Shown: piece by piece, positions 1,406-38,134 of the stretch
Position numbering within the stretch: position 1 is the first letter of the stretch
How the letters are laid out: each line of letters begins with the position of its first letter
IMG/VR virus record: IMGVR_UViG_3300036820_000007
Coordinates: 1-64,000 of that record
Source: a virus
DNA length: 64,000 bases
Direction: 5' to 3' (one strand)
Notes under the pieces: model-generated
The model's input: only the letters and a program-made list of their open reading frames with translations
What the model was told of the DNA's origin: nothing
Databases searched by the model: none
Program-made: the position numbers and the translations under genes

Positions 1406-1583
1406 TGAGGGTCTCCTCTCGGTTAGTGGTGGTACCACAGGAACCACGCAATCAGGACCAGCGCGATAACTACGGACGACACATGCCTCCGTCTGTTCAT
1501 CTGCGCTGGCGTGGGCGGTGGCGCGGGGTGGTACTCGATGCCGCGCACGATCATGCGTCCCAGCATTTTTGCCTCCTCTTTTC

Positions 1584-2972
1584 CTAGTCGACTTCGCCGT
1601 CGGCGCCTGTCTCGGATGTCACGCCCGTCACACCCGTCTCGCCTGTCTCAAAGAAGTCGTCCAGGTCGTCCGCGTCCCCGTCGAACAGGGTCCGCGTGTC
1701 GTCCAGGTCGTCCTCGTCCTCATCTTCCGGCGTGTCGGGCTCCTTCGGCAGCCGCTGGGCAGCGATGCGGTCGATGTCCCTCAGCCAGTAGCCGCGCGCC
1801 TGGTCCGGGCAGATGTGCCGGGGGAGCCGCTCCGGCCGCACGGGCCGCATGGCGTCGGCGATGAAGTCCGCCAGCGCCTTCGGCGACATGCCCTCGTACA
1901 GCGGGCTGCGGAACTCCTGGACCGTCTCCACGATGAGACGCCCGGGTACCGGGTCCGTGCCGATCTTCCACGCGGCCAGCTGGATGTCGCGGATCGCGGT
2001 CTGCTTCGGCGTGAGCACCGGCTGATCTGCCTGGTCGATGGCAAGGTCCAGGAACGCCGAGAGGGCGCGCCGTGGCCAGTTTCCGCCAGCTATAGCGGCA
2101 CAGGCCAGGAGCGGCTCCCAGATCTCACGCCGCCGGCCGGTCAGCTTGGGGTGCAGCCCCTTGGCCCGGAACCGCTCCAGCTCGGCCAGGCGGCCTCGTA
2201 CCCAGCAGGACAGCGCGTCGCGCAGCAGGTCAGTCTGCGGGTCATGCTCGCGCACCGTGTAGTCGCAGCGAGGGTGCCCCACCTGCATCTTGATGACCAG
2301 GCAGCGAGAGCGGATGTCGTCCGGGACTGCCACCCCTCGGCCGGCCATGCCTGCTGCGGTGAAGATGTCGGCCTGCTCCGCTACGCGGTTAACCGAGAAG
2401 CTCTGCGTTGCCTTCTGCTTGTAGCCCTTGCGCAGGACCTTGCCGATCGGCGCGCCAGCCCCGGCGCGGCCCGACTTGCCGAACACATCTGAGATCTCGT
2501 CGATGATGATGGTCGGCTTCATGTCCGGCGGGCAGGCCAGCTTGGAGCGCAGCGCGTCCGGAGTCGCGTCCCCGTCCCACTGGTTGGCCGACAGGCCCCC
2601 GACCCGGGCGAGCGATTCCGACTTGCCCGAGCCCATCTCGCCGGCCAGCAGCAGCCGCGGCGTGGCGGGGAAGGCCTGCAGGCCGTGGGTGTGCGCTGCC
2701 CAAAGTGTCATGACGTCCAGCTGTGCCGCAGTGGCGTCGATGAATTTGGCCAGGAATTCCCGGCACTCATCCAGGACTGCCGCCGGGTCGGGCCCTATTC
2801 CGTCCCGCGTGTTGTCCGCGTCAATCTGGGCTACGGTCGCGTCTGCCAGCGCGGTTGCTGCGCCTGCCTCCGCGACGGCGGAGCGGATGTCGCCGTCGTC
2901 AGCCAGCACGGTCCCGCGCAATGTTCCCCCGAACATGGCGGGCGACGGCCGGTCAGTTGTCATTGTCGTCAT
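1584..2972 (-). CDS. DUF3631-like P-loop NTPase (replication/primase-helicase associated)
   Basis: Walker A GEMGSGKS, Walker B IIIDE, DDIRSRC and RRREIWEPLL motifs, acidic C-terminal tail. Confidence 0.75.
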   Translation of the reverse strand: MTTMTTDRPSPAMFGGTLRGTVLADDGDIRSAVAEAGAATALADATVAQIDADNTRDGIGPDPAAVLDECREFLAKFIDATAAQLDVMTLWAAHTHGLQAFPATPRLLLAGEMGSGKSESLARVGGLSANQWDGDATPDALRSKLACPPDMKPTIIIDEISDVFGKSGRAGAGAPIGKVLRKGYKQKATQSFSVNRVAEQADIFTAAGMAGRGVAVPDDIRSRCLVIKMQVGHPRCDYTVREHDPQTDLLRDALSCWVRGRLAELERFRAKGLHPKLTGRRREIWEPLLACAAIAGGNWPRRALSAFLDLAIDQADQPVLTPKQTAIRDIQLAAWKIGTDPVPGRLIVETVQEFRSPLYEGMSPKALADFIADAMRPVRPERLPRHICPDQARGYWLRDIDRIAAQRLPKEPDTPEDEDEDDLDDTRTLFDGDADDLDDFFETGETGVTGVTSETGADGEVD

Positions 2973-3009
2973 GATCTGTGCTCCCCTCCCTCTCTCACGT
3001 TCGTAAATG

Positions 3010-3044
3010 ACTATACCCCCCGTGGCAGCCTAGTCACTTGTGAC
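3010..3044 (-). promoter_or_regulatory. candidate promoter (GTGACT-16-TATAGT) overlapping palindrome GTCAC-TT-GTGAC
   Basis: Upstream of the DUF3631-like gene; near-identical 22-mer recurs at 23956-23977. Confidence 0.45.
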
Positions 3045-3126
3045 GCGCAAACACATGCCTGATCTCTGCACACCCCGGCAGGTACCAGGCATGAGCAGGT
3101 ACCTGCGGGGGTGAACCGGGACCGGG

Positions 3127-3423
3127 CTAGCTGGGCGTGGCGTCCTCTTCCGGTGCGCACTGCCCGGAGGCCAGGTACGTAGCCGCGCTGGCTACGGGCG
3201 CCGCGCGGAGCTGGCTCACTGCCGTGTCCAGCGACCGCAGCGCGTCCTGGTAGTAGGCCGCAACTAGATCGATCGCTTCCTTGCGTCCCTCCGGCGTCAG
3301 CCACACCGTGTCGATTGCGCGCTGCGCCATCCGCAGGCGGTTTACTGCCTGGCCTGCGTTCTCAACGGCCAGGACGGCCGCGTCCTCGATCGTGGACAGG
3401 GCCTCCTTCTCAGTGGGTGCCAT
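3127..3423 (-). CDS. hypothetical protein
   Basis: ATG 3423 after GAGAGGAG. Confidence 0.6.
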   Translation of the reverse strand: MAPTEKEALSTIEDAAVLAVENAGQAVNRLRMAQRAIDTVWLTPEGRKEAIDLVAAYYQDALRSLDTAVSQLRAAPVASAATYLASGQCAPEEDATPS

Positions 3424-3461
3424 GCTGGTCTCCTCTCGACTTGATGAAGCGCTGGTCAGCG

Positions 3462-3851
3462 TCAGTCCCGCGGCGGGGAACCTCGCCACGGCCCGTATTG
3501 CCTGCCGCCCGGATTCACGTCCACGCGCGGGAGCGTGCTCAGGTGAGCTGGCCGGAGTGCCATGCGCACGACGGCCTGGTGCTCGCTCGTAGTGCTGGAG
3601 TAGCGGACATCAGGCAGCCACCATGCATCCACATCGCCCGGCCCCGCCGCGGGAACGTGCCATGCGATTGGCGTCTCGTAGCTGAACACCACGTAATCGG
3701 CGTCCCGCAGGAACCGGTGATACTGCGCGGGCAGGTCACCGCATCCGGTGGCGCCGCCGTCCTCGGTTGGCCGGCCGCTTAGCCAGCGATCCCGGAACTC
3801 CGCACGCGCCGCGATGGCATCGTGCGGGCTAACCCGTTTTGCTGCCGTCAT
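3462..3851 (-). CDS. conserved phage hypothetical protein (YVVFSYETPIAW / YSSTTSEHQ)
   Basis: ORF, RBS, motif pattern familiar from actinophage early proteins. Confidence 0.7.
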   Translation of the reverse strand: MTAAKRVSPHDAIAARAEFRDRWLSGRPTEDGGATGCGDLPAQYHRFLRDADYVVFSYETPIAWHVPAAGPGDVDAWWLPDVRYSSTTSEHQAVVRMALRPAHLSTLPRVDVNPGGRQYGPWRGSPPRD

Positions 3852-3928
3852 GCTGATCTCCTCTCGGTTCTGCCTCTTAGCAGGCACGGCGCGGGCACGA
3901 GTCGCGCCCGGCCGAACCGGTTAAGCGG

Positions 3929-4180
3929 TCACTGAGCTGCGGGCTCCATGGAGATCGCGCCGCCCTGGAGAATCTCCCCGTTGTTGCCGTACCACATTGA
4001 GTCGACGCGGATAACCGCGCCCGTCTGCCGATGGGTAAAGACGGCTTCCGCCATTCCCTCGGCTGCCTCGACTTTGCAGGTGTACTGATCGAGCGGCAGG
4101 CCGAAGCCGGTAAGCCAGTCCGCTCTTAGCTGCTGTTCGATGCGCCGGTTAAGCACGGCGCCGCTGAGCGCGCGAGGCAT
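3929..4180 (-). CDS. hypothetical protein
   Basis: ORF abutting upstream gene. Confidence 0.55.
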   Translation of the reverse strand: MPRALSGAVLNRRIEQQLRADWLTGFGLPLDQYTCKVEAAEGMAEAVFTHRQTGAVIRVDSMWYGNNGEILQGGAISMEPAAQ

Positions 4181-4183
4181 GAC

Positions 4184-4588
4184 CTAGAGCCTCTCGGTGT
4201 GCCAGAGGTAGGCGTCGTACTTGTCACCGAGGAACTGCCGCAACTTGATCGTCTGCGCCTCGGTCTGGTCCCAGACCCTCTCCGGCTTCCGCGAGTCGGT
4301 GTCCCACCCGAATTCGCTGGCCCAGTCCTCGAAGCCGTCCGCGTTCTCGAAGCTGGCGGCCTCGCTGGCCAGGGAGTCCAGAACCTCGGCCGCCTCGGGC
4401 TCGCCCGTGAGTGCTGGCCCCATGCCGTAAGGCACCGTCATCTGCCGGCGTCCCATGCGCAGGGTCACCCGGTACCAGTTGGCCCGCTCGTGCTGGGGCC
4501 GGTCCTGATCCCAGGCGCTCGCTGGCGGGTCGGTCATCACTGACTCTGCCGTGATCTTGTCTCGCTGCACGCGCTCTAGCATGTCCAT
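4184..4588 (-). CDS. conserved phage hypothetical protein (FEDWASEFGWDTDSRK)
   Basis: ORF with GAGAGGG RBS. Confidence 0.7.
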   Translation of the reverse strand: MDMLERVQRDKITAESVMTDPPASAWDQDRPQHERANWYRVTLRMGRRQMTVPYGMGPALTGEPEAAEVLDSLASEAASFENADGFEDWASEFGWDTDSRKPERVWDQTEAQTIKLRQFLGDKYDAYLWHTERL

Positions 4589-4613
4589 TGCTTGCGTGTC
4601 CCCTCTCGGCGTC

Positions 4614-4681
4614 AAGTGCCAGGGCGGCACTTCCGCCGGTCAGGTACAGGATCGACCTGAGCGACGGGCTAGCAGCCCTGG
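4614..4681 (-). ncRNA. intergenic pseudoknot element, GCUAG-linker subtype
   Basis: 5' AGGGC pairs with loop GCCCU of the AAGUGCC/GGCACUU hairpin. Confidence 0.7.
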
Positions 4682-4687
4682 TTAGTG

Positions 4688-4969
4688 CTACTCGCCTTTG
4701 ACCTTGACCACGCGCACCGGTACAGCGTCGATCTGCCAGCCGCCCGGCGCGCTCGGGTCGCGGTGGTGGCCGTGCCAGAGGCCGCCGCGCCCGTCTCCGC
4801 CCCGGCGTTCGTCGTCGGGAATGACGTCAACCCGGGTCATTGGCCGGCCGCGCTCGTCGGTCAGTCCTACGTGGATCTCCACCACGCAGCCGTCTGTTTC
4901 GATGTGCATGACGTTCCCGGAGCGGTTGTGCCCCGCGTAGAACGTTTCCCGCCTCATTGGCGCAGGCAT
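4688..4969 (-). CDS. hypothetical protein
   Basis: ORF with GAGAGGAG RBS. Confidence 0.6.
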   Translation of the reverse strand: MPAPMRRETFYAGHNRSGNVMHIETDGCVVEIHVGLTDERGRPMTRVDVIPDDERRGGDGRGGLWHGHHRDPSAPGGWQIDAVPVRVVKVKGE

Positions 4970-29240: not shown

Positions 29241-32200
29241 ATGCCGGCCAGCCCCCGCACAATCATGCGCGCGCTCAAGGCGACCGCGCCGACGCCAGCG
29301 CAAGGCGGCTACAGCAGCAGTGCCGGGCCTTTTCTGAGCGGGGGGCCGTCGCCACTGGTCGCCTCGTATTCGGAGTGGGCCTCAGGGCATGCCTACGGGC
29401 AGTCCAACGCCTTGCCGCGGGACTGGCAGTCGTTCCTGTCGGGCATGTTCGGGCCCGGCGTGCCGGTGCGGCCAGTCCCGATCGATGTCCCGAAGCCCGG
29501 GGATGAGCGCCCGGAACCGCGTCGCTGGCAGTATCCCATCTCCTGGGACCTCAATCTAGGACAACCCGGTACAGAAGGTATCGGCAAACTAGCTGATTTC
29601 AATACACTTCGGACGCTGGCGGACATGTATTCGGTCGCCCGCAGCTGCATCCAGCTGCGGAAGTCCGAACTCCGCGGCGTGGGCTGGGACATCGCGCCGA
29701 CCAAGGACGCCAGCAAGGCGATGCGGGGCGACCACAAGGGCATGACCGAGTTCGCCAAGCGCCGGGCAGAGGCCGTGCGCTTTTTCAGGAGGCCGGACGA
29801 GAACTTTGCGGACTTCACCTCATGGTTTGACGCCATGCTTGAGGAGATCTTCGTCACTGACGCGCTCGCGCTTTATGTCCACCCATCGCGCCTGCCGGGC
29901 AAAGGGCTCTTTGGCTCGAACGTGGGGGCTCTCGACCTGATCGATGGGTCCCTTATTAAGCCTTTGGTCGATGTGCGCGGTTCGCGTCCTTCGCCACCGC
30001 AAGTGGCGTATCAGCAGTATTCATACGGCGTGCCCCGTGTGGACCTTATGTCCCTGATTCTGGACCGCGAAGACATGGGCGCCCCCGAAGCCGAATACCG
30101 CGGCGACCAGCTGATGTACCTGCCGCTATGCCAGCGTACGTGGTCGCCTTATGGGGAGTCGCCCGTCGAGAGGGCGATTATCCCGATCATGGCAGGGCTG
30201 CGTAAGCAGCAGTTTGTCCTAAATTACTTCGATGAGCGAAGTATTCCCGGGTGCTTCGTGTCCCCTGGTGACCCGAATATGACACCAAGTCAGATTCGTG
30301 AGCTTCAAGATGCTTTGAACAGCATTGCGGGCGACCAGACCTGGCAGCAGAAGATCATCGTCCTGCCGGGCGGCTCGAAAGTGGACCCGCAGAAGCCGAT
30401 CACGTTGGCGGACGCTTTCGACAACGTTGTCATGATTCAGGTATGTATGGCCTTCGACGTGATGCCGTTCGAGCTCGGCATCATGCCCGAGGTCTCCACG
30501 ACCGTGGCCTCCGGCGCGGCCCGGCAGATGGCGACCGCTGCCCAGGACATCCAGGAGCGCAAAGGCACCGTCCCGTTGCTGCTCTTCCTGAAGATGGCGA
30601 TCTTCGACCGCATCATCCAAGATGTATGTGGTATGTCCGACATGGAGTGGCAATGGGAGGGTTTGGAAGAGGACGAAGACGAACAAATCCTGACAGAACT
30701 CCTAGTCGCCCAGGTTGGCTCCGGCATGTGCTCGATCGACGAGGCCCGCCAGGAGCTCAACCGCGAGCCCTGGGGCCTGCCGATCACCTCCGACCCGGGC
30801 TGGGCCACCCAGTGGGGCGGCTTCGTCCCGCTCACCGGACTGGCGGGCGCGACCGCCCAGCAGCAGGGCGGCTCGCCAGCTCCGGGCAACCCGCAAGGCA
30901 AGCCGAACGCCCAGCCAGGCACTGTGCAGGGAAAGCCCGCCGACCTGACGCTGCCATCCGAAGTCGAGCACCGCGGCGCGCCCTCACCGGTGTCGGCAAC
31001 CGTCCCTGCCACGCGGCCACGTAACCAGCAGTCACGTGGCCAGCGCCGCCAGGTTGCGGCAACCGTCAGCGATCGCCAGCGGCGCACCGGGGCCACCACC
31101 CCCGCTCACGCAGCGGCAATGGCCACCGGTGGCCGCGGACCGAAATCCGGAGCGTCATCCAAGGGAGATGCTACCCGCGAGCTCGGCCTGCTGAAGGCAC
31201 ATCTGCGCCGCGGTGGCAGGGTCACCGACTGGGAGCCGCGTGACATCCCCGGCCACGCCATGGCCACTATCAGCGAGGACCTGGCCAAGGGCCTGACCGC
31301 TGATCAGGCATGCGACATAGTCCGCGACTTGATCACCAAGGACGGCAAGTCGATCACCTTGTCCTCGCCACTCGGCACCGGGTTCGTCCCGTACGACCTG
31401 GTCGGCCAGCGCCGCCCGTCGGCCGAAAGCCCGGCAGCGGCGGGCCTGGCCGTCCTCGCCGCGGACACGGGCCGCGTGCTCATGCTGCAGCGCGCTGCGA
31501 GCGATGACGATCCGGCTTCGGGGTGCTGGGAGTTCCCCGGCGGCTGCCTCGAGGATGGCGAGGACCCGGCGATGGGCGCAATGCGCGAATGGGCTGAGGA
31601 GGTCGGAGCATACTGCCCTGCTGGCGAGCCCGCAGGCGGCTGGACCTCGGCGGACGGTGTGTACGCAGGCCACATCCTGGTCGTCCCGTCCGAGGCGGCA
31701 GTACCCGTGCATGGCGATCGCGACGAGGTGTCCAATCCGGACGACCCGGACGGGGATGCAATCGAGGCAATCGCCTGGTTCGACCCTGCGCAGATCCCCG
31801 GCAACCCCGCGGTCCGCGACGAGCTCCGCGCCGATGCTCTCGCGGTGCTGCGCGCCCTGGCCGCCGCCCTGCCTGGTGGCGTAATCAAGAACGCGGCCGA
31901 TCTCTCGGACCCGAATCCCGTCGAGTCCGAGCACGTGAAGAATCAAATGCGCCGAAATTATCCAGAAAAGGCGCTCGGGTGGATCGACGGTGCCCGGTGG
32001 CTCGGCCCGGTCCGGATCCCGCAGGACCGCATCGACTACGACGACATGGACAAGTGGGCCGCTTCCCACCAGAAGGCCCGCGTTAAGCATTTCGCCCGCC
32101 AGATCGAGGACGACGAGTCTCACCTGCACCCCGTTGTCGCCGTCCAGGAGCCAGGCGAAAACAAGATCAAGGTGATCGATGGCCACCACCGCACCCTTGC

Positions 32201-32390
32201 CTACCGCAAGCTCGGCCAGCCTGTGAAGGCCTACGTCGGCTTCGTCGACCACGACGGCGGCGAGTGGGATGAGACCCACGCCTTCCAGTTCCACCAGGGC
32301 GAGGACCCGGCCAACAAGGGCGGTGGTGCCGGCCCAAAAGTTCGAGCAAGCGGGCCATCTGGCCCGGGCAGTGGCGGGACGAGCAGCTAG
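29241..32390 (+). CDS. portal protein fused to Nudix hydrolase and ParB/Srx-like domains
   Basis: Portal core (YGESPVE, YFDERSIPG, SIDEARQEL); Nudix box GGCLEDGEDPAMGAMREWAEEVG; VIDGHHR. Confidence 0.85.
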   Translation: MPASPRTIMRALKATAPTPAQGGYSSSAGPFLSGGPSPLVASYSEWASGHAYGQSNALPRDWQSFLSGMFGPGVPVRPVPIDVPKPGDERPEPRRWQYPISWDLNLGQPGTEGIGKLADFNTLRTLADMYSVARSCIQLRKSELRGVGWDIAPTKDASKAMRGDHKGMTEFAKRRAEAVRFFRRPDENFADFTSWFDAMLEEIFVTDALALYVHPSRLPGKGLFGSNVGALDLIDGSLIKPLVDVRGSRPSPPQVAYQQYSYGVPRVDLMSLILDREDMGAPEAEYRGDQLMYLPLCQRTWSPYGESPVERAIIPIMAGLRKQQFVLNYFDERSIPGCFVSPGDPNMTPSQIRELQDALNSIAGDQTWQQKIIVLPGGSKVDPQKPITLADAFDNVVMIQVCMAFDVMPFELGIMPEVSTTVASGAARQMATAAQDIQERKGTVPLLLFLKMAIFDRIIQDVCGMSDMEWQWEGLEEDEDEQILTELLVAQVGSGMCSIDEARQELNREPWGLPITSDPGWATQWGGFVPLTGLAGATAQQQGGSPAPGNPQGKPNAQPGTVQGKPADLTLPSEVEHRGAPSPVSATVPATRPRNQQSRGQRRQVAATVSDRQRRTGATTPAHAAAMATGGRGPKSGASSKGDATRELGLLKAHLRRGGRVTDWEPRDIPGHAMATISEDLAKGLTADQACDIVRDLITKDGKSITLSSPLGTGFVPYDLVGQRRPSAESPAAAGLAVLAADTGRVLMLQRAASDDDPASGCWEFPGGCLEDGEDPAMGAMREWAEEVGAYCPAGEPAGGWTSADGVYAGHILVVPSEAAVPVHGDRDEVSNPDDPDGDAIEAIAWFDPAQIPGNPAVRDELRADALAVLRALAAALPGGVIKNAADLSDPNPVESEHVKNQMRRNYPEKALGWIDGARWLGPVRIPQDRIDYDDMDKWAASHQKARVKHFARQIEDDESHLHPVVAVQEPGENKIKVIDGHHRTLAYRKLGQPVKAYVGFVDHDGGEWDETHAFQFHQGEDPANKGGGAGPKVRASGPSGPGSGGTSS
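32333..32339 (+). other. putative -1 frameshift site C CCA AAA (portal to MuF)
   Basis: -1 frame is open from 32273 to 34294 with no start codon before 32606; same GGCCCAAAAG as the tail chaperone site. Confidence 0.75.
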
Positions 32391-34294
32391 CTGACGAGTA
32401 CGCCCAGGACTTCTCCCGCCAGCTGGCCGCCGCGGTCAACGCGGAACTGATCGCTCAGGGCTGGCTGGACGAATGCCAGGCCGCCGAAAAGGCCAGCAGG
32501 CCGCAGCAGAGCCAGAGTCAGCAGCAACGGCAGCAGCAGCAAGCCCGCCAGCAGCAGGCCCGGAGGTACCTGGCGGCGGCCGGGGTCACCGGCGCGATCG
32601 CCTCGGTGATCGGTGGCATCCTCGCCCTTCTCTGGCGCGCTGCGTTCGCGCTCGGCTGGGCCGCGGCCATCCAGATCCTCGGCGTGGGCGGCCTGGTCGG
32701 CGACGAGGCCGCGCTGGGAGACCTGCTCTCGCAGTCCGGGCCGCGGCTGGACGGCATCGTCGAGACACGCATCAAGCGTCTCGAGCAGGCCCTGGCCGCC
32801 GCAGCGGACTCGGGCGTCTCGGCCGGTGAGCTTGCCCAGCAGATCACGGCGATCCTTGGCGGCCGAGCTCCGGCCCGGCTGGTGACCCAGACGGAAACGT
32901 CGTGGGGTGCCGGTCACGCGCAGGTGGCCGCTTACCGAGCAGCCGGAGTGGCGCAAGTTATCTGGCAGACGATGAACGACTCCGAAGTGTGTTTCCCTGC
33001 CGGAACGCCGGTGGCGACGCCCTCAGGCGATGTCCTGATCGAATCCCTGAGGCCCGGTGATCTCGTCCTCACCCCACAGGGGCAGCGTGCCGTCCGTGAT
33101 ACCGGTAGTCGGCTTTACGCGGGCTGCGTCACGGTGCTTGAGGCGGAAGGGGCGACGGTCGCTGCGACGGACGATCATCCGTTCTGGACCGCCGCTGGCT
33201 GGCGGAAGGCGGGACAGCTCGAGCCCGGGGACCTCCTGCAGACGTCCGAGAACCAGTTCGCAGAGGTCGGCCGCGTTGTTCACGTCCGATTCGGCAAGCC
33301 GGACGACGTGCCAGCCCATCTGCCGGAGCGCCCTGTCCTTGATGGCGTCGCTCTCGGGACGCAATTGGTGCCAGTACTCCCCATCGGCCTCAAGGGCGAT
33401 CCATGCTTCCGTGAGAGCGAAGTCGATCGTCCAGTTTTTGACTTGCAGTTCCTGAACGAAGCTGATCCCGAGAGCCGCGAGCGCTTGCCTGACGCGAAAC
33501 TCGAGCATGGTTTCACCCGTGAACTTGCGATAACAGCTGCGGGAGCAAAATCGTCGACCGTTAGCCGGAGCGGAGGGGACGATCCGGAAGCAGTTGCCGC
33601 AGTTGGCGCAGTCCATGTAGACGGGCGGCCGACGGCACTCTTCGGAGCAGTGGTGCCGAGGGTATCGCTTGTCGGCCAGGAACCGGTTGCCGCACCGTTC
33701 GCAGTTGAGGTACTCGGTGTCGGCTGTGGTGCACGCCCTGGAGCAGGTGTTGTACCTGTCAGCGGTGGACTGGCTGACGCTGAATTCCTTCCCGCAGACG
33801 GTGCAGTGCTTAGTGACGCGCCGACTGGAACCCATGCATTCGCGCGAGCAGTAGGCCCGGTCCTGGCGCCCGGTCGTGCAGCCGGGCGCAGGCTGGCGGG
33901 GGTCGAATTGCTTACCGCAGCCGAGGCACTCCCGGGTGGGATAGACGATAGTGTCGGCATGGTAGCAGTCCCTGGAGCAATAGACATGCTCCTTCTTGGT
34001 TCGGCTGCGACGCTGGAAACCTTTGCCACAATGGTCGCAGATGTATGGGAAAGGCATCCTAATGCTCGCGTCCTCGATCTAGGGGAAATCAATGCGCCAT
34101 TGACAGTTTACAATATTGAAGTAGAAGTTGAGCACGTATTTTATGCGTGTCGCTTCCTTGTGCACAATTGCGGTCGATGCCATGGCAATCAAGCAGCAGG
34201 CCCGTGGCCACTGGGCAGCCCATTCCCGAGTGGGGCGCTCAGTCCGCCACAACATCCCAGATGTCGTTGCTTTTTGCGACCTTCCGGACATTAG
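32333..34294 (+). CDS. MuF/gp7-like head morphogenesis protein with intein
   Basis: TETSW; spliced VCGRC; HPRCRC. Confidence 0.82.
   Translation, partial: PKSSSKRAIWPGQWRDEQLADEYAQDFSRQLAAAVNAELIAQGWLDECQAAEKASRPQQSQSQQQRQQQQARQQQARRYLAAAGVTGAIASVIGGILALLWRAAFALGWAAAIQILGVGGLVGDEAALGDLLSQSGPRLDGIVETRIKRLEQALAAAADSGVSAGELAQQITAILGGRAPARLVTQTETSWGAGHAQVAAYRAAGVAQVIWQTMNDSEVCFPAGTPVATPSGDVLIESLRPGDLVLTPQGQRAVRDTGSRLYAGCVTVLEAEGATVAATDDHPFWTAAGWRKAGQLEPGDLLQTSENQFAEVGRVVHVRFGKPDDVPAHLPERPVLDGVALGTQLVPVLPIGLKGDPCFRESEVDRPVFDLQFLNEADPESRERLPDAKLEHGFTRELAITAAGAKSSTVSRSGGDDPEAVAAVGAVHVDGRPTALFGAVVPRVSLVGQEPVAAPFAVEVLGVGCGARPGAGVVPVSGGLADAEFLPADGAVLSDAPTGTHAFARAVGPVLAPGRAAGRRLAGVELLTAAEALPGGIDDSVGMVAVPGAIDMLLLGSAATLETFATMVADVWERHPNARVLDLGEINAPLTVYNIEVEVEHVFYACRFLVHNCGRCHGNQAAGPWPLGSPFPSGALSPPQHPRCRCFLRPSGH
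32990..34168 (+). mobile_element. intein (393 aa) in MuF
   Basis: Block A CFPAGTPV, block B TDDHPFW, block F VYNIEVE, block G VHN followed by Cys. Confidence 0.9.
33023..34057 (-). CDS. Zn-finger-repeat plus DUF559/Vsr-like endonuclease, antisense inside the intein
   Basis: Five CxxC...CSxxC repeats; IDFA, LEADGEYWH, KDRAL, GWHVVRL. Confidence 0.85.
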   Translation of the reverse strand: MPFPYICDHCGKGFQRRSRTKKEHVYCSRDCYHADTIVYPTRECLGCGKQFDPRQPAPGCTTGRQDRAYCSRECMGSSRRVTKHCTVCGKEFSVSQSTADRYNTCSRACTTADTEYLNCERCGNRFLADKRYPRHHCSEECRRPPVYMDCANCGNCFRIVPSAPANGRRFCSRSCYRKFTGETMLEFRVRQALAALGISFVQELQVKNWTIDFALTEAWIALEADGEYWHQLRPESDAIKDRALRQMGWHVVRLAESDVNNAADLCELVLGRLQEVPGLELSRLPPASGGPERMIVRRSDRRPFRLKHRDAARVKPTTGITDGTLPLWGEDEITGPQGFDQDIA

Positions 34295-34376
34295 TTGCGC
34301 AGGCTTGCCTGCACCGGCTTGCTGTTTCGCCGATTCGCCGACCGCAGGCGCAAGCGGCGTCTGCCATGATGGGTAC

Positions 34377-34766
34377 ATGAGCGATGCACTGCGCCTGCGC
34401 GGTACTGCGGCTCGCGCGGGGGAGCCGGACCAGTCGATCGGCCTGGGCGTAACGGTGCCCGAGGAAGTATCGGTGACGATCGAGTTCAGCCGGGATCATA
34501 CTGTCGGTACGGCTGCGCTCTGGAGAGATGAAGCTGGCGACATTCAGGCCGACGTCATGGTGTTCCTGGACAGCGATCCGCTCTTGCGTAAAGGGATGCA
34601 AGGCCGGAGGTTGTGGCCCTACTTCGCGCTAAGCATCGGCCAGACGGTTGTCAGCAAGGACGACGCGCACCCGATGGGCGTCATCAGCTCCGGCGTGGTA
34701 CGTGAACTGGCGCTCGTCACCCGCAACTCTGACCCTGACCTGCCGCCGTACGAGATCGTCCAGTAG
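34377..34766 (+). CDS. hypothetical protein
   Basis: ATG 34377, phage codon usage. Confidence 0.5.
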   Translation: MSDALRLRGTAARAGEPDQSIGLGVTVPEEVSVTIEFSRDHTVGTAALWRDEAGDIQADVMVFLDSDPLLRKGMQGRRLWPYFALSIGQTVVSKDDAHPMGVISSGVVRELALVTRNSDPDLPPYEIVQ

Positions 34767-35110
34767 GGCCCGAGTTACCCTGCTCCGGCGTGTCATCCCA
34801 GGTTGGGGTGACAACGCCCGTATGTGACGTGTACCCTAGGCGTCAGTCGAAGGAGTATGCCCCGAGTTCGGCGTCACGCCAAGTCAGGGGCCTTTTTCAT
34901 GCCCGGGGCCAGCGGCAGGGACTCCCGATTCTCCACCCTGCATACCGGGGCCGCCGGTGTTGCCCCCGGCGCGGGTTCTCGCGAACGCCCGGCGTCCTGA
35001 ATTTGTGGATCGTATCTATTAGACGACGCTGGCCAGCCTGGAGCCTAGCGCAGCCCGTTCCCCCGCGGGCAGGCTAACCCGTTCGCACACTCGCACACTC
35101 GCACATTCGC

Positions 35111-35144
35111 ACGCCCGCCTCCCGGCCGGGCGTTTTTTCTTTGC
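35111..35144 (+). terminator. intrinsic terminator-like hairpin
   Basis: ACGCCCG/CGGGCGT stem followed by a T-tract. Confidence 0.5.
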
Positions 35145-35158
35145 CGGGGGGAGCAATC

Positions 35159-38134
35159 GTGGCGCACACCACTGCCGATGCCCTGACGTACGTCTCGTTT
35201 CCTATCGAGAAATTCGAGGAGGACGACGAGGGCAACCTGATCGTCGTCGGCAAGGCGACGGACGGCAGCGTCGACAGCGACCGCCAGATCGTCGACCCGG
35301 GCTGGAGCGCGAAGGCTCTGGGGGACTGGCACGACACGGGTGGCAACGTGCGTGTGATGCACAATCCGGGCCTCTACCCGGCCGGCCGCAGCCTGAAGGT
35401 GGAGACCTCGGCGGACGGCCACACGGTGAAGGCCCTCGTCGTCGAGGACACGGCGAAGAAGCTGGTCAAGAACCGCGTCCTGCGCGCCTACTCGGTCGGC
35501 ATCGCCGAGCCCGTGATCGAGCGCGACATGACCGGCAAGGCGGTCGGTGGCCGCATCACAGGTGGCCGCATCGTCGAATTGTCCCTAGTTGACCGACCTG
35601 CCAACAAAAATTGCGGTTTGACCCTCGCCAAGGCAGAAGGCCATGACGCGGCCTGGTCATACGGCGACCTGGACGCCCTGCTCGAGAAGGCTGAGAAGGC
35701 CGAGGAGCAGCCCGGCGAGGCAGCCCACGACCCGGCCGATCCGAACGCGCCCAGCGACGGCGAGGAAGTCGACCAGTCGGACGTGGTCAAGGCCGACGGC
35801 GGCGGCGACTCGGGTGGCGAGGGCGGCGGCAGCGAAGGTGCACAGGGAGACTCCGCGTCAGCCGACCAGGCCGACGGCGACGGCGACGATGATGGCGGCG
35901 AGGCCGTGAAGATGGCCGGCGACGCTTACCGGGCCGCGCGCAAGGAGTGGCTTGGCCGCGAGCCGGGCACCAAGGGGATCACCGGCGGCACGGAGTACTT
36001 GGCCAAGCGCGCTGACTGGCACCGGTGGAACGCCGAAGGCGAAGCGGAAGGCCTGGACGGCACCCGCGAAGGCGCTGAGCGCTGGCTGGCGAAGCAGGCG
36101 GCAGAAGCTCCCGCCGCAGACGCAGACAAGCGCGACTTCTCGGCCTCCGAGCGCCGGTCCGCTGCCAGCAGCGGGGCCGCTATGAGCGACGGCAGCTTCC
36201 CGATCAAGACGAAGGAAGACCTCAAAAACGCGATCCATCTGGCCGGCCACGCCAAGGACCCGGGCAAGGCCCGCGCACACATCAAGGCCCGCGCGGCCGC
36301 GATCGGCGCCTCGGACATGATCCCGGACTCGTGGAAGATCGACACCGCTGAGATCCCGGCTGACGTCACGCTGGCCAAGCTCGAGAGCGACGGCGAGGTG
36401 AGCACGGAGATCGCCAAGGCCATGCTCGGTGACGAGCAGTACGGCGTGCTCACCAAGGCGGACTCCACCGCAGCGGCGCCAGGGAAGACGAAGTGCGGCA
36501 CCTGCAGCGGCAGCGGCTCGATCAAAGACGGCAACGTGACCTGCCCGGACTGCAAGGGCAAGGGCAAGATGAAGCCGAAGAAGGCAGCCAAGGCCGCGGC
36601 CCTCGCGGCCGTTGCTGAGATGGTGGCCAAGTCGGTCACCGCCGGGCTGATCTCCGAGAAGGCCGCCCAGGACATCCTGCACCAGGTGCAGCCCGAAGGC
36701 GGATTCCTGCACCAGTCCGGCAAGCGCCCCCTTCCCGCCGACGTGGCTGCGGTAGCGCACCACCGCGAGCCGGACGGCTCCAGCGGCGTCGAGCAGTTCG
36801 AGCACGACTCGGGCCTGCCCACCCAGGCCGACGCGGTCGCCGACAAGGTCCCGTCCTCGGTAGATGCCCTGCAGATGAAGTCTGACGCCCCTTACGCGGT
36901 GGCGCGGATGCACGACGCGTTCTGTGCCGCCTGGAGCGGTGACGCCGTGCTCGGCGAGTACCCGTCCCTGAAGAGCGCCGCCGATGCCGCGGACCCGGCG
37001 TGGTTCACCGCGCAGGCCCAGAAGGCAGTCGATGCTGGCTATGCCAGTGATGCGATAGAGCTGCTCACGCTGGCCAAGGAAGCCGCCGCGGTGAAGTCGG
37101 CGGATGCTGCAGTCATCGCTGACGGGCGCGCGGAACTGCACAAGGCGTTCTCCGACATGTACCCGTCGGAGCGGATCCGGCCGGGCGACCCTCGCAAGCC
37201 AGGCTCGTTCCAGCGGCCCTACCTGTCCGCCGGTCACGCCACTGAGCACGCAGGCGGCAGCACGAACGTCCCGCCGTCCACGGACACGCCCGCGCCGGAC
37301 CAGTTCCACCGCGGCTACCTCAGCGAAGGCCACGCGGACCCATCCCCGGCCGACAACGGGCCGAACAACCGGGCCGCGCCGACGACCGGGTCCGCCAGGA
37401 CCTACTACACGACCTCGGCCAAGGAGCAGGCGCGCGTCGCGATGCAGGCCATGCACGACCACATCGCGGCCAGCCACCCCGAACTCTGCCCGATGGCCCC
37501 GTCCAAGAGCGTCATGCCGCCGGACCTGGGCGCGCGCAACGTGCCGCAGCCGAAGGCCCCGATGGCCATGGGCGGCGTCGCCGGAGTGGGCAAGGCCGCG
37601 GATGCCTCGGCGAACGGCGCGCTGGAGACCCAGAACGAGCAGGCCTTCGGCCAGGCTAAGCCGCCGAAGAACCGCAAGAAGAAGAAGCTCTCCAAGGGCG
37701 AGTTCTTCAGCTACGCACAGCGGCACGGCCTCACCGTCGTGCCCGCCAGCGAAGGCCCGGTTCCGGTGCCGCAGCCAGCTCCCGACCCGGTGGCCGTCAA
37801 GGCCCTGGTCGCCGAGCAGCTGACCCCGCTCACCGAGCACTACGAGAAGCAGATTTCCGAGCTCCGCCTCCAGGTGGACAAGCTCGGGGCACAGCCCGAT
37901 CCGGCCATGGCCCCCGTGCGCGGCCCGATGGCACGGCCCGGTGCGACCGGCGCAGCTCCCGTGGAGAAGCGCAGCCTGGTCGATGAAGCACGCGAGCGCG
38001 CCGACCACATGGCGGCCGCAGAGCGGCGCGACTTCATGGCGTATGTGGAAATGCAGAGCCGCTCACCTGACCCGAAAGTCCGCGAGAAGGCAATGGCCAT
38101 CATCGAGAAGATGGACGCCACCGTTCCCGCCTGA
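35159..38134 (+). CDS. prohead protease / scaffold fusion with DnaJ-type Zn finger
   Basis: HK97-type protease (VRVMH, AYSVGI, ELSLVDRPAN); CGTCSGSG...CPDCKGKG; C-terminal coiled coil. Confidence 0.82.
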   Translation: MAHTTADALTYVSFPIEKFEEDDEGNLIVVGKATDGSVDSDRQIVDPGWSAKALGDWHDTGGNVRVMHNPGLYPAGRSLKVETSADGHTVKALVVEDTAKKLVKNRVLRAYSVGIAEPVIERDMTGKAVGGRITGGRIVELSLVDRPANKNCGLTLAKAEGHDAAWSYGDLDALLEKAEKAEEQPGEAAHDPADPNAPSDGEEVDQSDVVKADGGGDSGGEGGGSEGAQGDSASADQADGDGDDDGGEAVKMAGDAYRAARKEWLGREPGTKGITGGTEYLAKRADWHRWNAEGEAEGLDGTREGAERWLAKQAAEAPAADADKRDFSASERRSAASSGAAMSDGSFPIKTKEDLKNAIHLAGHAKDPGKARAHIKARAAAIGASDMIPDSWKIDTAEIPADVTLAKLESDGEVSTEIAKAMLGDEQYGVLTKADSTAAAPGKTKCGTCSGSGSIKDGNVTCPDCKGKGKMKPKKAAKAAALAAVAEMVAKSVTAGLISEKAAQDILHQVQPEGGFLHQSGKRPLPADVAAVAHHREPDGSSGVEQFEHDSGLPTQADAVADKVPSSVDALQMKSDAPYAVARMHDAFCAAWSGDAVLGEYPSLKSAADAADPAWFTAQAQKAVDAGYASDAIELLTLAKEAAAVKSADAAVIADGRAELHKAFSDMYPSERIRPGDPRKPGSFQRPYLSAGHATEHAGGSTNVPPSTDTPAPDQFHRGYLSEGHADPSPADNGPNNRAAPTTGSARTYYTTSAKEQARVAMQAMHDHIAASHPELCPMAPSKSVMPPDLGARNVPQPKAPMAMGGVAGVGKAADASANGALETQNEQAFGQAKPPKNRKKKKLSKGEFFSYAQRHGLTVVPASEGPVPVPQPAPDPVAVKALVAEQLTPLTEHYEKQISELRLQVDKLGAQPDPAMAPVRGPMARPGATGAAPVEKRSLVDEARERADHMAAAERRDFMAYVEMQSRSPDPKVREKAMAIIEKMDATVPA

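Follow-up and report, generated by a model that had tools for sequence, protein, structure and literature searches.

We asked how one stretch of viral DNA can hold both an intact intein and a nuclease that might mobilise it when the two are read from opposite strands. The window analysed here, a stretch of 64,000 nucleotides (nt) that forms part of a 98,488-base IMG/VR viral record (IMGVR_UViG_3300036820_000007), contains at 32990-34168 an intein inserted in a MuF head morphogenesis gene and, nested within this intein on the minus strand, a gene for a 344-residue nuclease. On sequence and structural models, we consider it probable that the locus belongs to the "anti-sense VSR-like homing endonuclease" type of mobile intein, its mobility being a prediction. 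The DNA may come from an uncultured soil phage with a high content of guanine plus cytosine (GC), and one soil-metagenome DNA run that covers the whole stretch is a possible source.

An intein with no endonuclease in its own frame

The plus strand carries one open reading frame (ORF), at 32606-34294, which encodes 562 amino acids (aa) and holds both MuF exteins together with the intein. Its parts are listed below with the evidence for each, where AF2 denotes AlphaFold2, pLDDT its per-residue confidence (predicted local distance difference test) and L082 a related viral contig with an uninterrupted MuF gene.

32606..32989, plus strand: MuF N-extein (head morphogenesis, SPP1 gp7/Mu F type), 128 aa; Pfam Phage_Mu_F match, and 50% identity to L082 up to the junction Cys
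32990..34168, plus strand: class-1 intein, 393 aa (Cys1 ... His-Asn, then +1 Cys); diagnostic residues, alignment, AF2 and Foldseek
32990..33292, plus strand: N-terminal splicing (HINT) domain of the intein, residues 1-101; pLDDT 94-98, intein frame about twice as conserved as its antisense
33293..34057, plus strand: central read-through of the intein, residues ~102-356, the antisense image of the nuclease gene; stop-free, not conserved, not foldable
34058..34168, plus strand: C-terminal splicing blocks of the intein, residues 357-393; pLDDT 95-96 at 371-393 and ~71 at 357-370
34169..34294, plus strand: MuF C-extein, 41 aa plus stop, with CxxC at its start and HPxCRC at its end; aligns with L082 residues 260-298 right after the junction Cys

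The boundaries of the intein were read from the DNA itself, with Cys1 encoded by TGT at 32990, the terminal His-Asn at 34163-34168 and the +1 Cys by TGC at 34169. Block B is present as T60-x-x-H63, and C1, T60, H63, H392 and N393 were invariant among 38 aligned inteins of this type. At the C-terminal end, the motif VYN.xVE...LVHN is conserved in ~43 loci, as is the His-Asn pair followed by Cys. The insertion point is the CxxC motif of the MuF gene, at about position 78 of the Phage_Mu_F profile: positions 3-78 of this profile matched residues 59-129 of the 562-aa ORF, and the Hint domain (Pfam Hint_2, 45.7 bits against a cut-off of 28.4) continued directly from there. Because the intein splits the MuF domain, the unspliced precursor scored only 23.1 bits against PF04233 (Phage_Mu_F; cut-off 29.6), and the relative L025 reached 41.3 bits.

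The contig L082 shows what such a gene looks like when it lacks the insert. Its MuF gene is colinear with that of the window across the intein junction and gave a one-piece match to Phage_Mu_F (positions 2-111, 28.4 bits, with the same cut-off of 29.6). Residues 5-129 of the window ORF aligned with L082 residues 136-260, and residues 522-560 with L082 residues 260-298; both alignments therefore meet at one Cys of L082, and the 393 residues are a clean insertion at that single Cys. Contigs from three soil runs were uninformative about the empty site, as none bridged it and fragments of relatives reached its flanks only.

The middle of the intein behaved very differently from its ends. AF2 modelled residues 1-100 and 371-393 with high confidence (pLDDT 94-98 and 95-96, respectively), and Foldseek matched these structured parts to the mini-inteins gp41-1, DnaB and RecA (E values down to 5.6e-8), while pLDDT was 25-47 across residues 110-340. 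No endonuclease family in Pfam matched the plus-strand frame of the intein. In tblastn searches of cultured phages only the first ~90-120 residues of the intein found matches, to other inteins, and the middle never did; blastn of the gene against cultured phages gave no match. We conclude that 32990-34168 is a class-1 intein with a HINT fold, for which splicing is predicted from its residues and model, and there is strong support for a splicing domain assembled from residues 1-~100 and ~357-393, with the ~255 residues between them forming no domain. The initial annotation of this DNA had proposed a canonical Cys...His-Asn/Cys intein at the MuF CxxC motif, whose central part lacks a plus-strand endonuclease and yet stays open; the coordinates, the Hint_2 match and the colinearity with L082 bear out the first point, and the absence both of a Pfam endonuclease match and of any stop codon bears out the second.

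A zinc-module nuclease on the opposite strand

The missing nuclease lies on the minus strand, wholly inside the intein, with its ATG 111 nt from the intein C-terminal end and its stop codon 33 nt from the N-terminal end.

33023..34057, minus strand: nuclease ORF, 344 aa, ATG start; homologues, Pfam and AF2
33533..34039, minus strand: five tandem Cys4 zinc modules, residues 7-175, presumed to be a DNA-recognition array; near-invariant cysteines, pLDDT 86-98
33248..33520, minus strand: EDxHD/Vsr-like (DUF559) catalytic domain, residues 180-270; profile and fold match to 3r3p, with D212, E223, D225, H230 and D237
33023..33217, minus strand: C-terminal tail of the nuclease, residues 281-344 plus stop, passenger antisense of the intein N-splicing domain; pLDDT 40-64, intein frame conserved there

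The two genes are in exact codon-for-codon register, such that position 1 of a plus-strand codon faces position 3 on the minus strand and intein residue i faces nuclease residue 357-i. Across the central region, GC content by plus-strand codon position was 0.79/0.51/0.56, and the third-position (GC3) signature of coding therefore lies on the minus strand.

Searches with the nuclease ORF against Pfam matched DUF559 at 33.6 bits (cut-off 20.6), with MTES_1575 (38.0 bits, cut-off 38.2) and Vsr (19.6 bits, cut-off 27) falling below threshold. The N-terminal half consists of modules of the form CxxC...(Y/F)CSxxC (C7/10/27/31, C44/47/70/74, C85/88/105/109, C119/122/137/141 and C150/153/171/175), whose cysteines are invariant or nearly so among 42 sequences; all 20 are intact in the window copy. 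This array gave weak, sub-threshold matches only, to FCS/MYM, YacG and treble-clef zinc fingers, and neither a helix-turn-helix (HTH) nor a NUMOD match was found in the N-terminal 175 residues. In the catalytic domain D212, E223, D225 and H230 are invariant in nuclease relatives, and D237 nearly so. The nuclease family profile matched the homing endonuclease I-Bth0305I (3r3p) over the entire catalytic domain (E 1.7e-16), with D212, E223, H230 and D237 aligning to its residue 196, the Glu of its "IEVNG" stretch, residue 213 and residue 222, respectively (for their roles see PMC3239194). The AF2 model of the nuclease had a mean pLDDT of 85, with every 10-residue block at 86 or more over residues 1-280 and values of 40-64 over 281-344, and its top Foldseek match was the catalytic domain of 3r3p (TM score 0.77 by target length), followed by Vsr. 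Homologues comprised 35 proteins at E<=1e-3 (32-58% identity) and 342 related viral stretches.

At 67% GC a long antisense ORF is nothing unusual, and this window has many of them, which raises the question of whether the 344 codons form a chance ORF with no minus-strand gene behind it. This explanation is refuted by the DUF559 score above its Pfam cut-off, by hundreds of homologues, some of them at 32-40% GC, by the confident fold and by the profile match to I-Bth0305I. The minus strand thus encodes a complete nuclease with five zinc modules and an intact EDxHD catalytic domain, as the initial annotation had claimed in describing a 344-aa protein with its own ATG, five zinc fingers and a DUF559/Vsr-like nuclease. 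Judged from profiles and models, the catalytic domain is a member of the EDxHD/Vsr-like family and the architecture of the protein is a variant, because its zinc modules stand where I-Bth0305I has NUMOD/HTH; cleavage of DNA is predicted. The gene call on the record (P0001) spans 197 of the 344 residues (57%, at 100% identity), the antisense gene having been truncated by automatic annotation.

Three codons are banned from the nuclease gene

Stop codons in the intein frame can arise only from TTA, CTA or TCA codons of the antisense nuclease gene. The window nuclease ORF has none, where the codon usage of the window itself predicts 3.3 (P of zero ~0.03), so that avoidance in this copy, being only mildly beyond chance, is suggestive only. 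Among 42 distinct loci with an antisense gene in a MuF intein, ranging from 32 to 73% GC, there was again not one such codon, against ~183 expected (joint probability ~1e-93). The ban holds in the loci of 32-48% GC, where 6-17 of these codons would be expected per gene. By contrast, the 23 remaining relatives, which were not scored as full antisense intein loci, contained 123 such codons where ~83 were expected. Expected counts were derived from neighbouring genes using crude longest-ORF sets and are approximate, and the contrast between the two groups is independent of them.

The distribution of stop codons over all six frames agreed with this result. Over the whole window intein there were no stops in the intein frame, 12 and 20 in the other plus-strand frames, and 2, 5 and 10 in the minus-strand frames; the minus-strand frame with 2 stops is the codon-for-codon antisense frame, which is open over the nuclease ORF. 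In the central part across relatives, the intein frame and the codon-for-codon antisense frame were open, and the other four frames averaged 4-16 stops. These data strongly support selection against TTA, CTA and TCA in the nuclease gene, by which the intein frame is kept open.

Each part of the overlap has one master frame

The initial annotation had also held that about 1 kb is coding on both strands. We evaluated this claim by comparing mean pairwise identity frame by frame across 41 distinct inteins. The intein frame was the more conserved, by ~1.5- to 2-fold, at intein residues 1-90 and 361-390 (0.42 vs 0.19 at residues 1-30), and the nuclease frame was the more conserved, by nearly 2-fold over most of the region, at intein residues 91-360 (for example 0.56 vs 0.28); within the central part, identity was 0.18-0.28 in the intein frame and 0.27-0.56 in the nuclease frame. 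The two AF2 models were complementary in the same manner, with the nuclease confident where the intein is disordered and the intein confident at both ends. From this split in conservation and the mirrored models, it follows that the middle of the intein is a read-through of the nuclease antisense, and that the last ~64 residues of the nuclease come from reading through the strand opposite the intein N-domain. That tail is unusually long in the window, as the nuclease stop codon lies ~200 nt from the intein N-terminal end in most relatives.

The claim of dual coding is therefore correct in that both ORFs are open over 1035 nt, but nearly everywhere in this overlap just one of the two frames is conserved and foldable; both look structured over ~25 codons only, at roughly 33218-33292. 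It is a clear example of the same codons yielding two proteins, one from each strand, with a complete ban on three codons as the visible mark of selection on the passenger frame.

Relatives of the intein and of the nuclease

The arrangement is not peculiar to the window. In ~43 distinct loci the intein occupies the identical point in MuF, ...D(D/E)R(V/T)^C...HN^CxxC (^ marks the splice junctions), and the host genes of these inteins include both stand-alone MuF genes and portal-MuF(-protease) fusions. The proposal that an endonuclease of free-standing type sits in reverse in a mini-sized intein whose frame remains open thus holds beyond this one copy, since dozens of divergent phage loci show the arrangement, again under selection.

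There are also nuclease relatives with no intein seen, meaning that the splicing blocks of this intein family were not found beside the gene, and these interleave with the embedded ones on the nuclease tree. Provisionally, in a tree built from 37 of ~65 distinct rows (many tblastn ranges that ran past a stop codon having been dropped), the supported branches appear to force at least four changes between free-standing and embedded forms. The interleaving would be consistent with invasion of the intein by a free-standing gene. The sole plainly annotated free-standing relative of the nuclease is that of Microcystis phage MaeS.

Mycobacterium phage relatives were also considered as free-standing genes, but there the nuclease ORF proved to be antisense to an annotated gene. 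In Mycobacterium phage Camster (MW055902.1; L083:1459-2286, plus strand), and likewise in Malithi, an unannotated 275-aa ORF encodes zinc modules and DUF559, and gene 55 of the GenBank annotation ("hypothetical protein") is the antisense shadow of this ORF. This nuclease ORF sits in reverse between two DNA methylase coding sequences (CDS), genes 54 and 57. Gene callers evidently mis-call such loci, producing a 197-aa call for the 344-aa nuclease here and a shadow ORF in Camster and Malithi.

Possible expression signals and a proposed model for homing

The region upstream of the nuclease ATG (34058..34168) is strikingly AT-rich, with ~44% GC vs 67% for the window. Motifs of at least 5 nt resembling a Shine-Dalgarno sequence precede the nuclease start in 13 of 38 relatives, vs 6.5% of control positions. 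One subgroup has TCAGGAG 6 nt before the nuclease ATG, inside the conserved "LLT" codons of the intein, and several low-GC loci have a TATAAT box whose end is 4-7 nt before the ATG; overall, these upstream motifs lie 4-22 nt before the start (e.g. L005, L007, L017, L031, L033; L035, L039, L053). TCAGGAG and TATAAT may serve as signals for translation and transcription that are written into the coding sequence of the intein, and the position of TATAAT hints at short-leader or leaderless transcripts.

We propose the following order of events. The precursor would be translated through the unstructured linker, and the intein would then splice itself out, restoring the MuF motif ...V^CGRC...; since splicing restores this motif, the insert would cost the phage little. 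The nuclease would be made from its own antisense transcript, starting in or beyond the AT-rich C-terminal region of the intein. It would then cut MuF alleles without the intein, close to the insertion site, in co-infecting relatives, and recombinational repair would copy the intein together with the nuclease gene into the cut alleles, which constitutes homing. A separate promoter could uncouple production of the nuclease from late structural-gene expression, and it is plausible, as the initial annotation suggested, that antisense placement would free nuclease timing from that of late MuF.

Several observations weigh against this model of a mobile intein with an active antisense endonuclease. 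No promoter-like site turned up on the minus strand, or on the plus strand, when 32300-34900 was scanned for sigma-70 promoters and terminators, and the ribosome-binding context in the window is poor, with AGGA 13 nt before the nuclease ATG. Among public runs there were no RNA sequencing runs containing the sequence. The stop-free intein frame, taken from the window copy only, is just marginally significant (P ~0.03), and as the closest relative is ~57% identical, recent purifying selection on this copy is not measurable.

The missing promoter consensus and the weak ribosome-binding context would also be expected of a relic, in which the intein still splices and is passed on vertically, as a mini-intein whose linker is long, while the antisense gene is silent or inactive. 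The unusually long nuclease ORF, with its stop so close to the intein N-terminal end, points in the same direction, and several VSR-like cases look vertically inherited according to sections of a preprint on actinobacteriophage inteins (bioRxiv 10.1101/2025.01.02.630785). However, the copy retains each of its 20 zinc cysteines and every catalytic position, pLDDT reaches at least 86 in each 10-residue block over 280 residues, and the coding GC3 signature lies on the minus strand, and we regard a relic as unlikely.

A further explanation is that the nuclease is functional but is not the homing enzyme for this site, for instance attacking competing phage or host DNA in exclusion or interference, with the intein as a safe harbour. 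The existence of nuclease relatives outside inteins, including the one reversed between DNA methylase CDS in Camster and Malithi, would fit such a role. Against it stand the tie of this nuclease family to one precise MuF insertion point in ~43 divergent loci, the existence of intein-less alleles, and the behaviour of the nearest characterised relative, I-Bth0305I, which cuts beside its own insertion site (PMC3239194); taken together, these make a non-homing role improbable, more so than a relic. A mobile intein with an antisense homing endonuclease is, in our judgement, the reading that best fits the locus.

Comparison with known systems

The initial annotation implied that this layout was new, and in this it was mistaken. 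Gosselin, Arsenault and Gogarten ("Actinobacteriophage Inteins", bioRxiv 10.1101/2025.01.02.630785) describe, in the sections compared here, anti-sense VSR-like endonucleases in full inteins, including those of minor capsid (MuF) genes; they match the VSR-like nuclease to 1CW0 and 3R3P, report an in-frame intein middle without recognisable structure, and propose invasion by a free-standing endonuclease gene as its origin. For earlier anti-sense LAGLIDADG cases these sections cite Gorbalenya 1998 and Gogarten et al. 2002, and for Vsr-like genes located between the halves of split inteins they cite Dassa 2009 (PMC2677866). The window element resembles the actinobacteriophage cases, as those sections present them, in being a contiguous intein with an antisense ORF between its splicing blocks, an EDxHD core and a minor capsid host (IPR006528, that is, MuF/gp7), and differs in coming from an uncultured soil phage contig rather than from PhagesDB. 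In the same sections the word "zinc" does not occur, and the codon-for-codon register, the TTA/CTA/TCA ban and the spread to 32-50% GC are not treated.

The layout and its interpretation are thus already published, and what is new here is a statistic for the codon ban, the finding that conservation and foldability are divided between the two frames, the recognition of the five-Cys4 zinc array, and the spread to low-GC phages and to portal-MuF fusions. The value of our analysis lies in confirmation, quantification and breadth beyond actinobacteriophages. For intein biology, it supports the view that homing endonucleases enter pre-existing splicing domains as free-standing genes.

Three other systems help to place the element. 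I-Bth0305I, the prototype EDxHD homing endonuclease (PMC3239194, PDB 3R3P), has a homologous catalytic domain and is likewise phage-borne and tied to a self-splicing element; however, it belongs to a group I intron of recA and has an N-terminal NUMOD/HTH, whereas the window nuclease has five Cys4 zinc modules and lies antisense in an intein. In the "fractured genes" of Dassa et al. (2009, PMC2677866), a Vsr-like endonuclease likewise stands as its own ORF between N- and C-intein parts, but those are split inteins, and the host frame in the window runs unbroken through the nuclease gene. Canonical bifunctional inteins (e.g. PI-SceI) and the anti-sense LAGLIDADG inteins share with the window the combination of a HINT domain with a homing nuclease between the splicing blocks; canonical inteins, however, translate the nuclease in frame, and the older antisense cases are LAGLIDADG enzymes where the window nuclease is EDxHD. 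For tool-building, the element offers a modular zinc-array EDxHD nuclease, the target of which is presumably long.

Other layouts among relatives and neighbouring genes

Several relatives carry the same parts in other arrangements. In two loci the nuclease shares the intein's strand in a shifted frame (L069:2860-4305, plus strand, within ORF 1950-4685; L081:2908-3876, plus strand, within ORF 1683-4292), and the intein/MuF frame is open for 870-912 codons at a GC content of 0.46 and 0.66, respectively, giving a sense-strand overlapping version of the element. At L076 (1978-3741 and 3708-4793, plus strand), the nuclease is fused in frame after the N-splicing domain, and a separate ORF opens with the C-splicing block and the C-extein, the arrangement being that of a split intein or else the result of a frameshift. 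At L042, two minus-strand ORFs (1495-3063 and 3604-4833) carry the N and C intein parts, and the nuclease (3001-3909, plus strand) lies antisense between them with 15 TTA/CTA/TCA codons, which makes this locus either the "fractured gene" form of the element or a case of decay.

Tentatively, the MuF-site element could be a single stage of one evolving system whose members take up all possible layouts, although we think this rather doubtful. If the layouts of L069/L081, L076 and L042 truly convert into one another, they would trace how a free-standing endonuclease gene can give rise to bifunctional and to split inteins, and the antisense form could bring with it an RNA switch, sense against antisense, between expression of the nuclease and that of late genes.

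The MuF gene is flanked on the plus strand by two long ORFs. Downstream, 35141-38134 encodes 997 aa with long acidic, Ala- and Pro-rich stretches; no significant Pfam family was found in it, the sole match being a weak one to a DnaJ-type CxxCxGxG zinc finger at residues 452-480, and by its position it may be a scaffold or capsid-related fusion. The product of the ORF at 29241-32390 combines a portal protein (Phage_portal, 39.2 bits) with a fused NUDIX hydrolase domain at residues 733-855 (E 2.4e-15), and its C-terminal stretch has the motif DGHHR and matches a ParB-like nuclease weakly (E 0.07).

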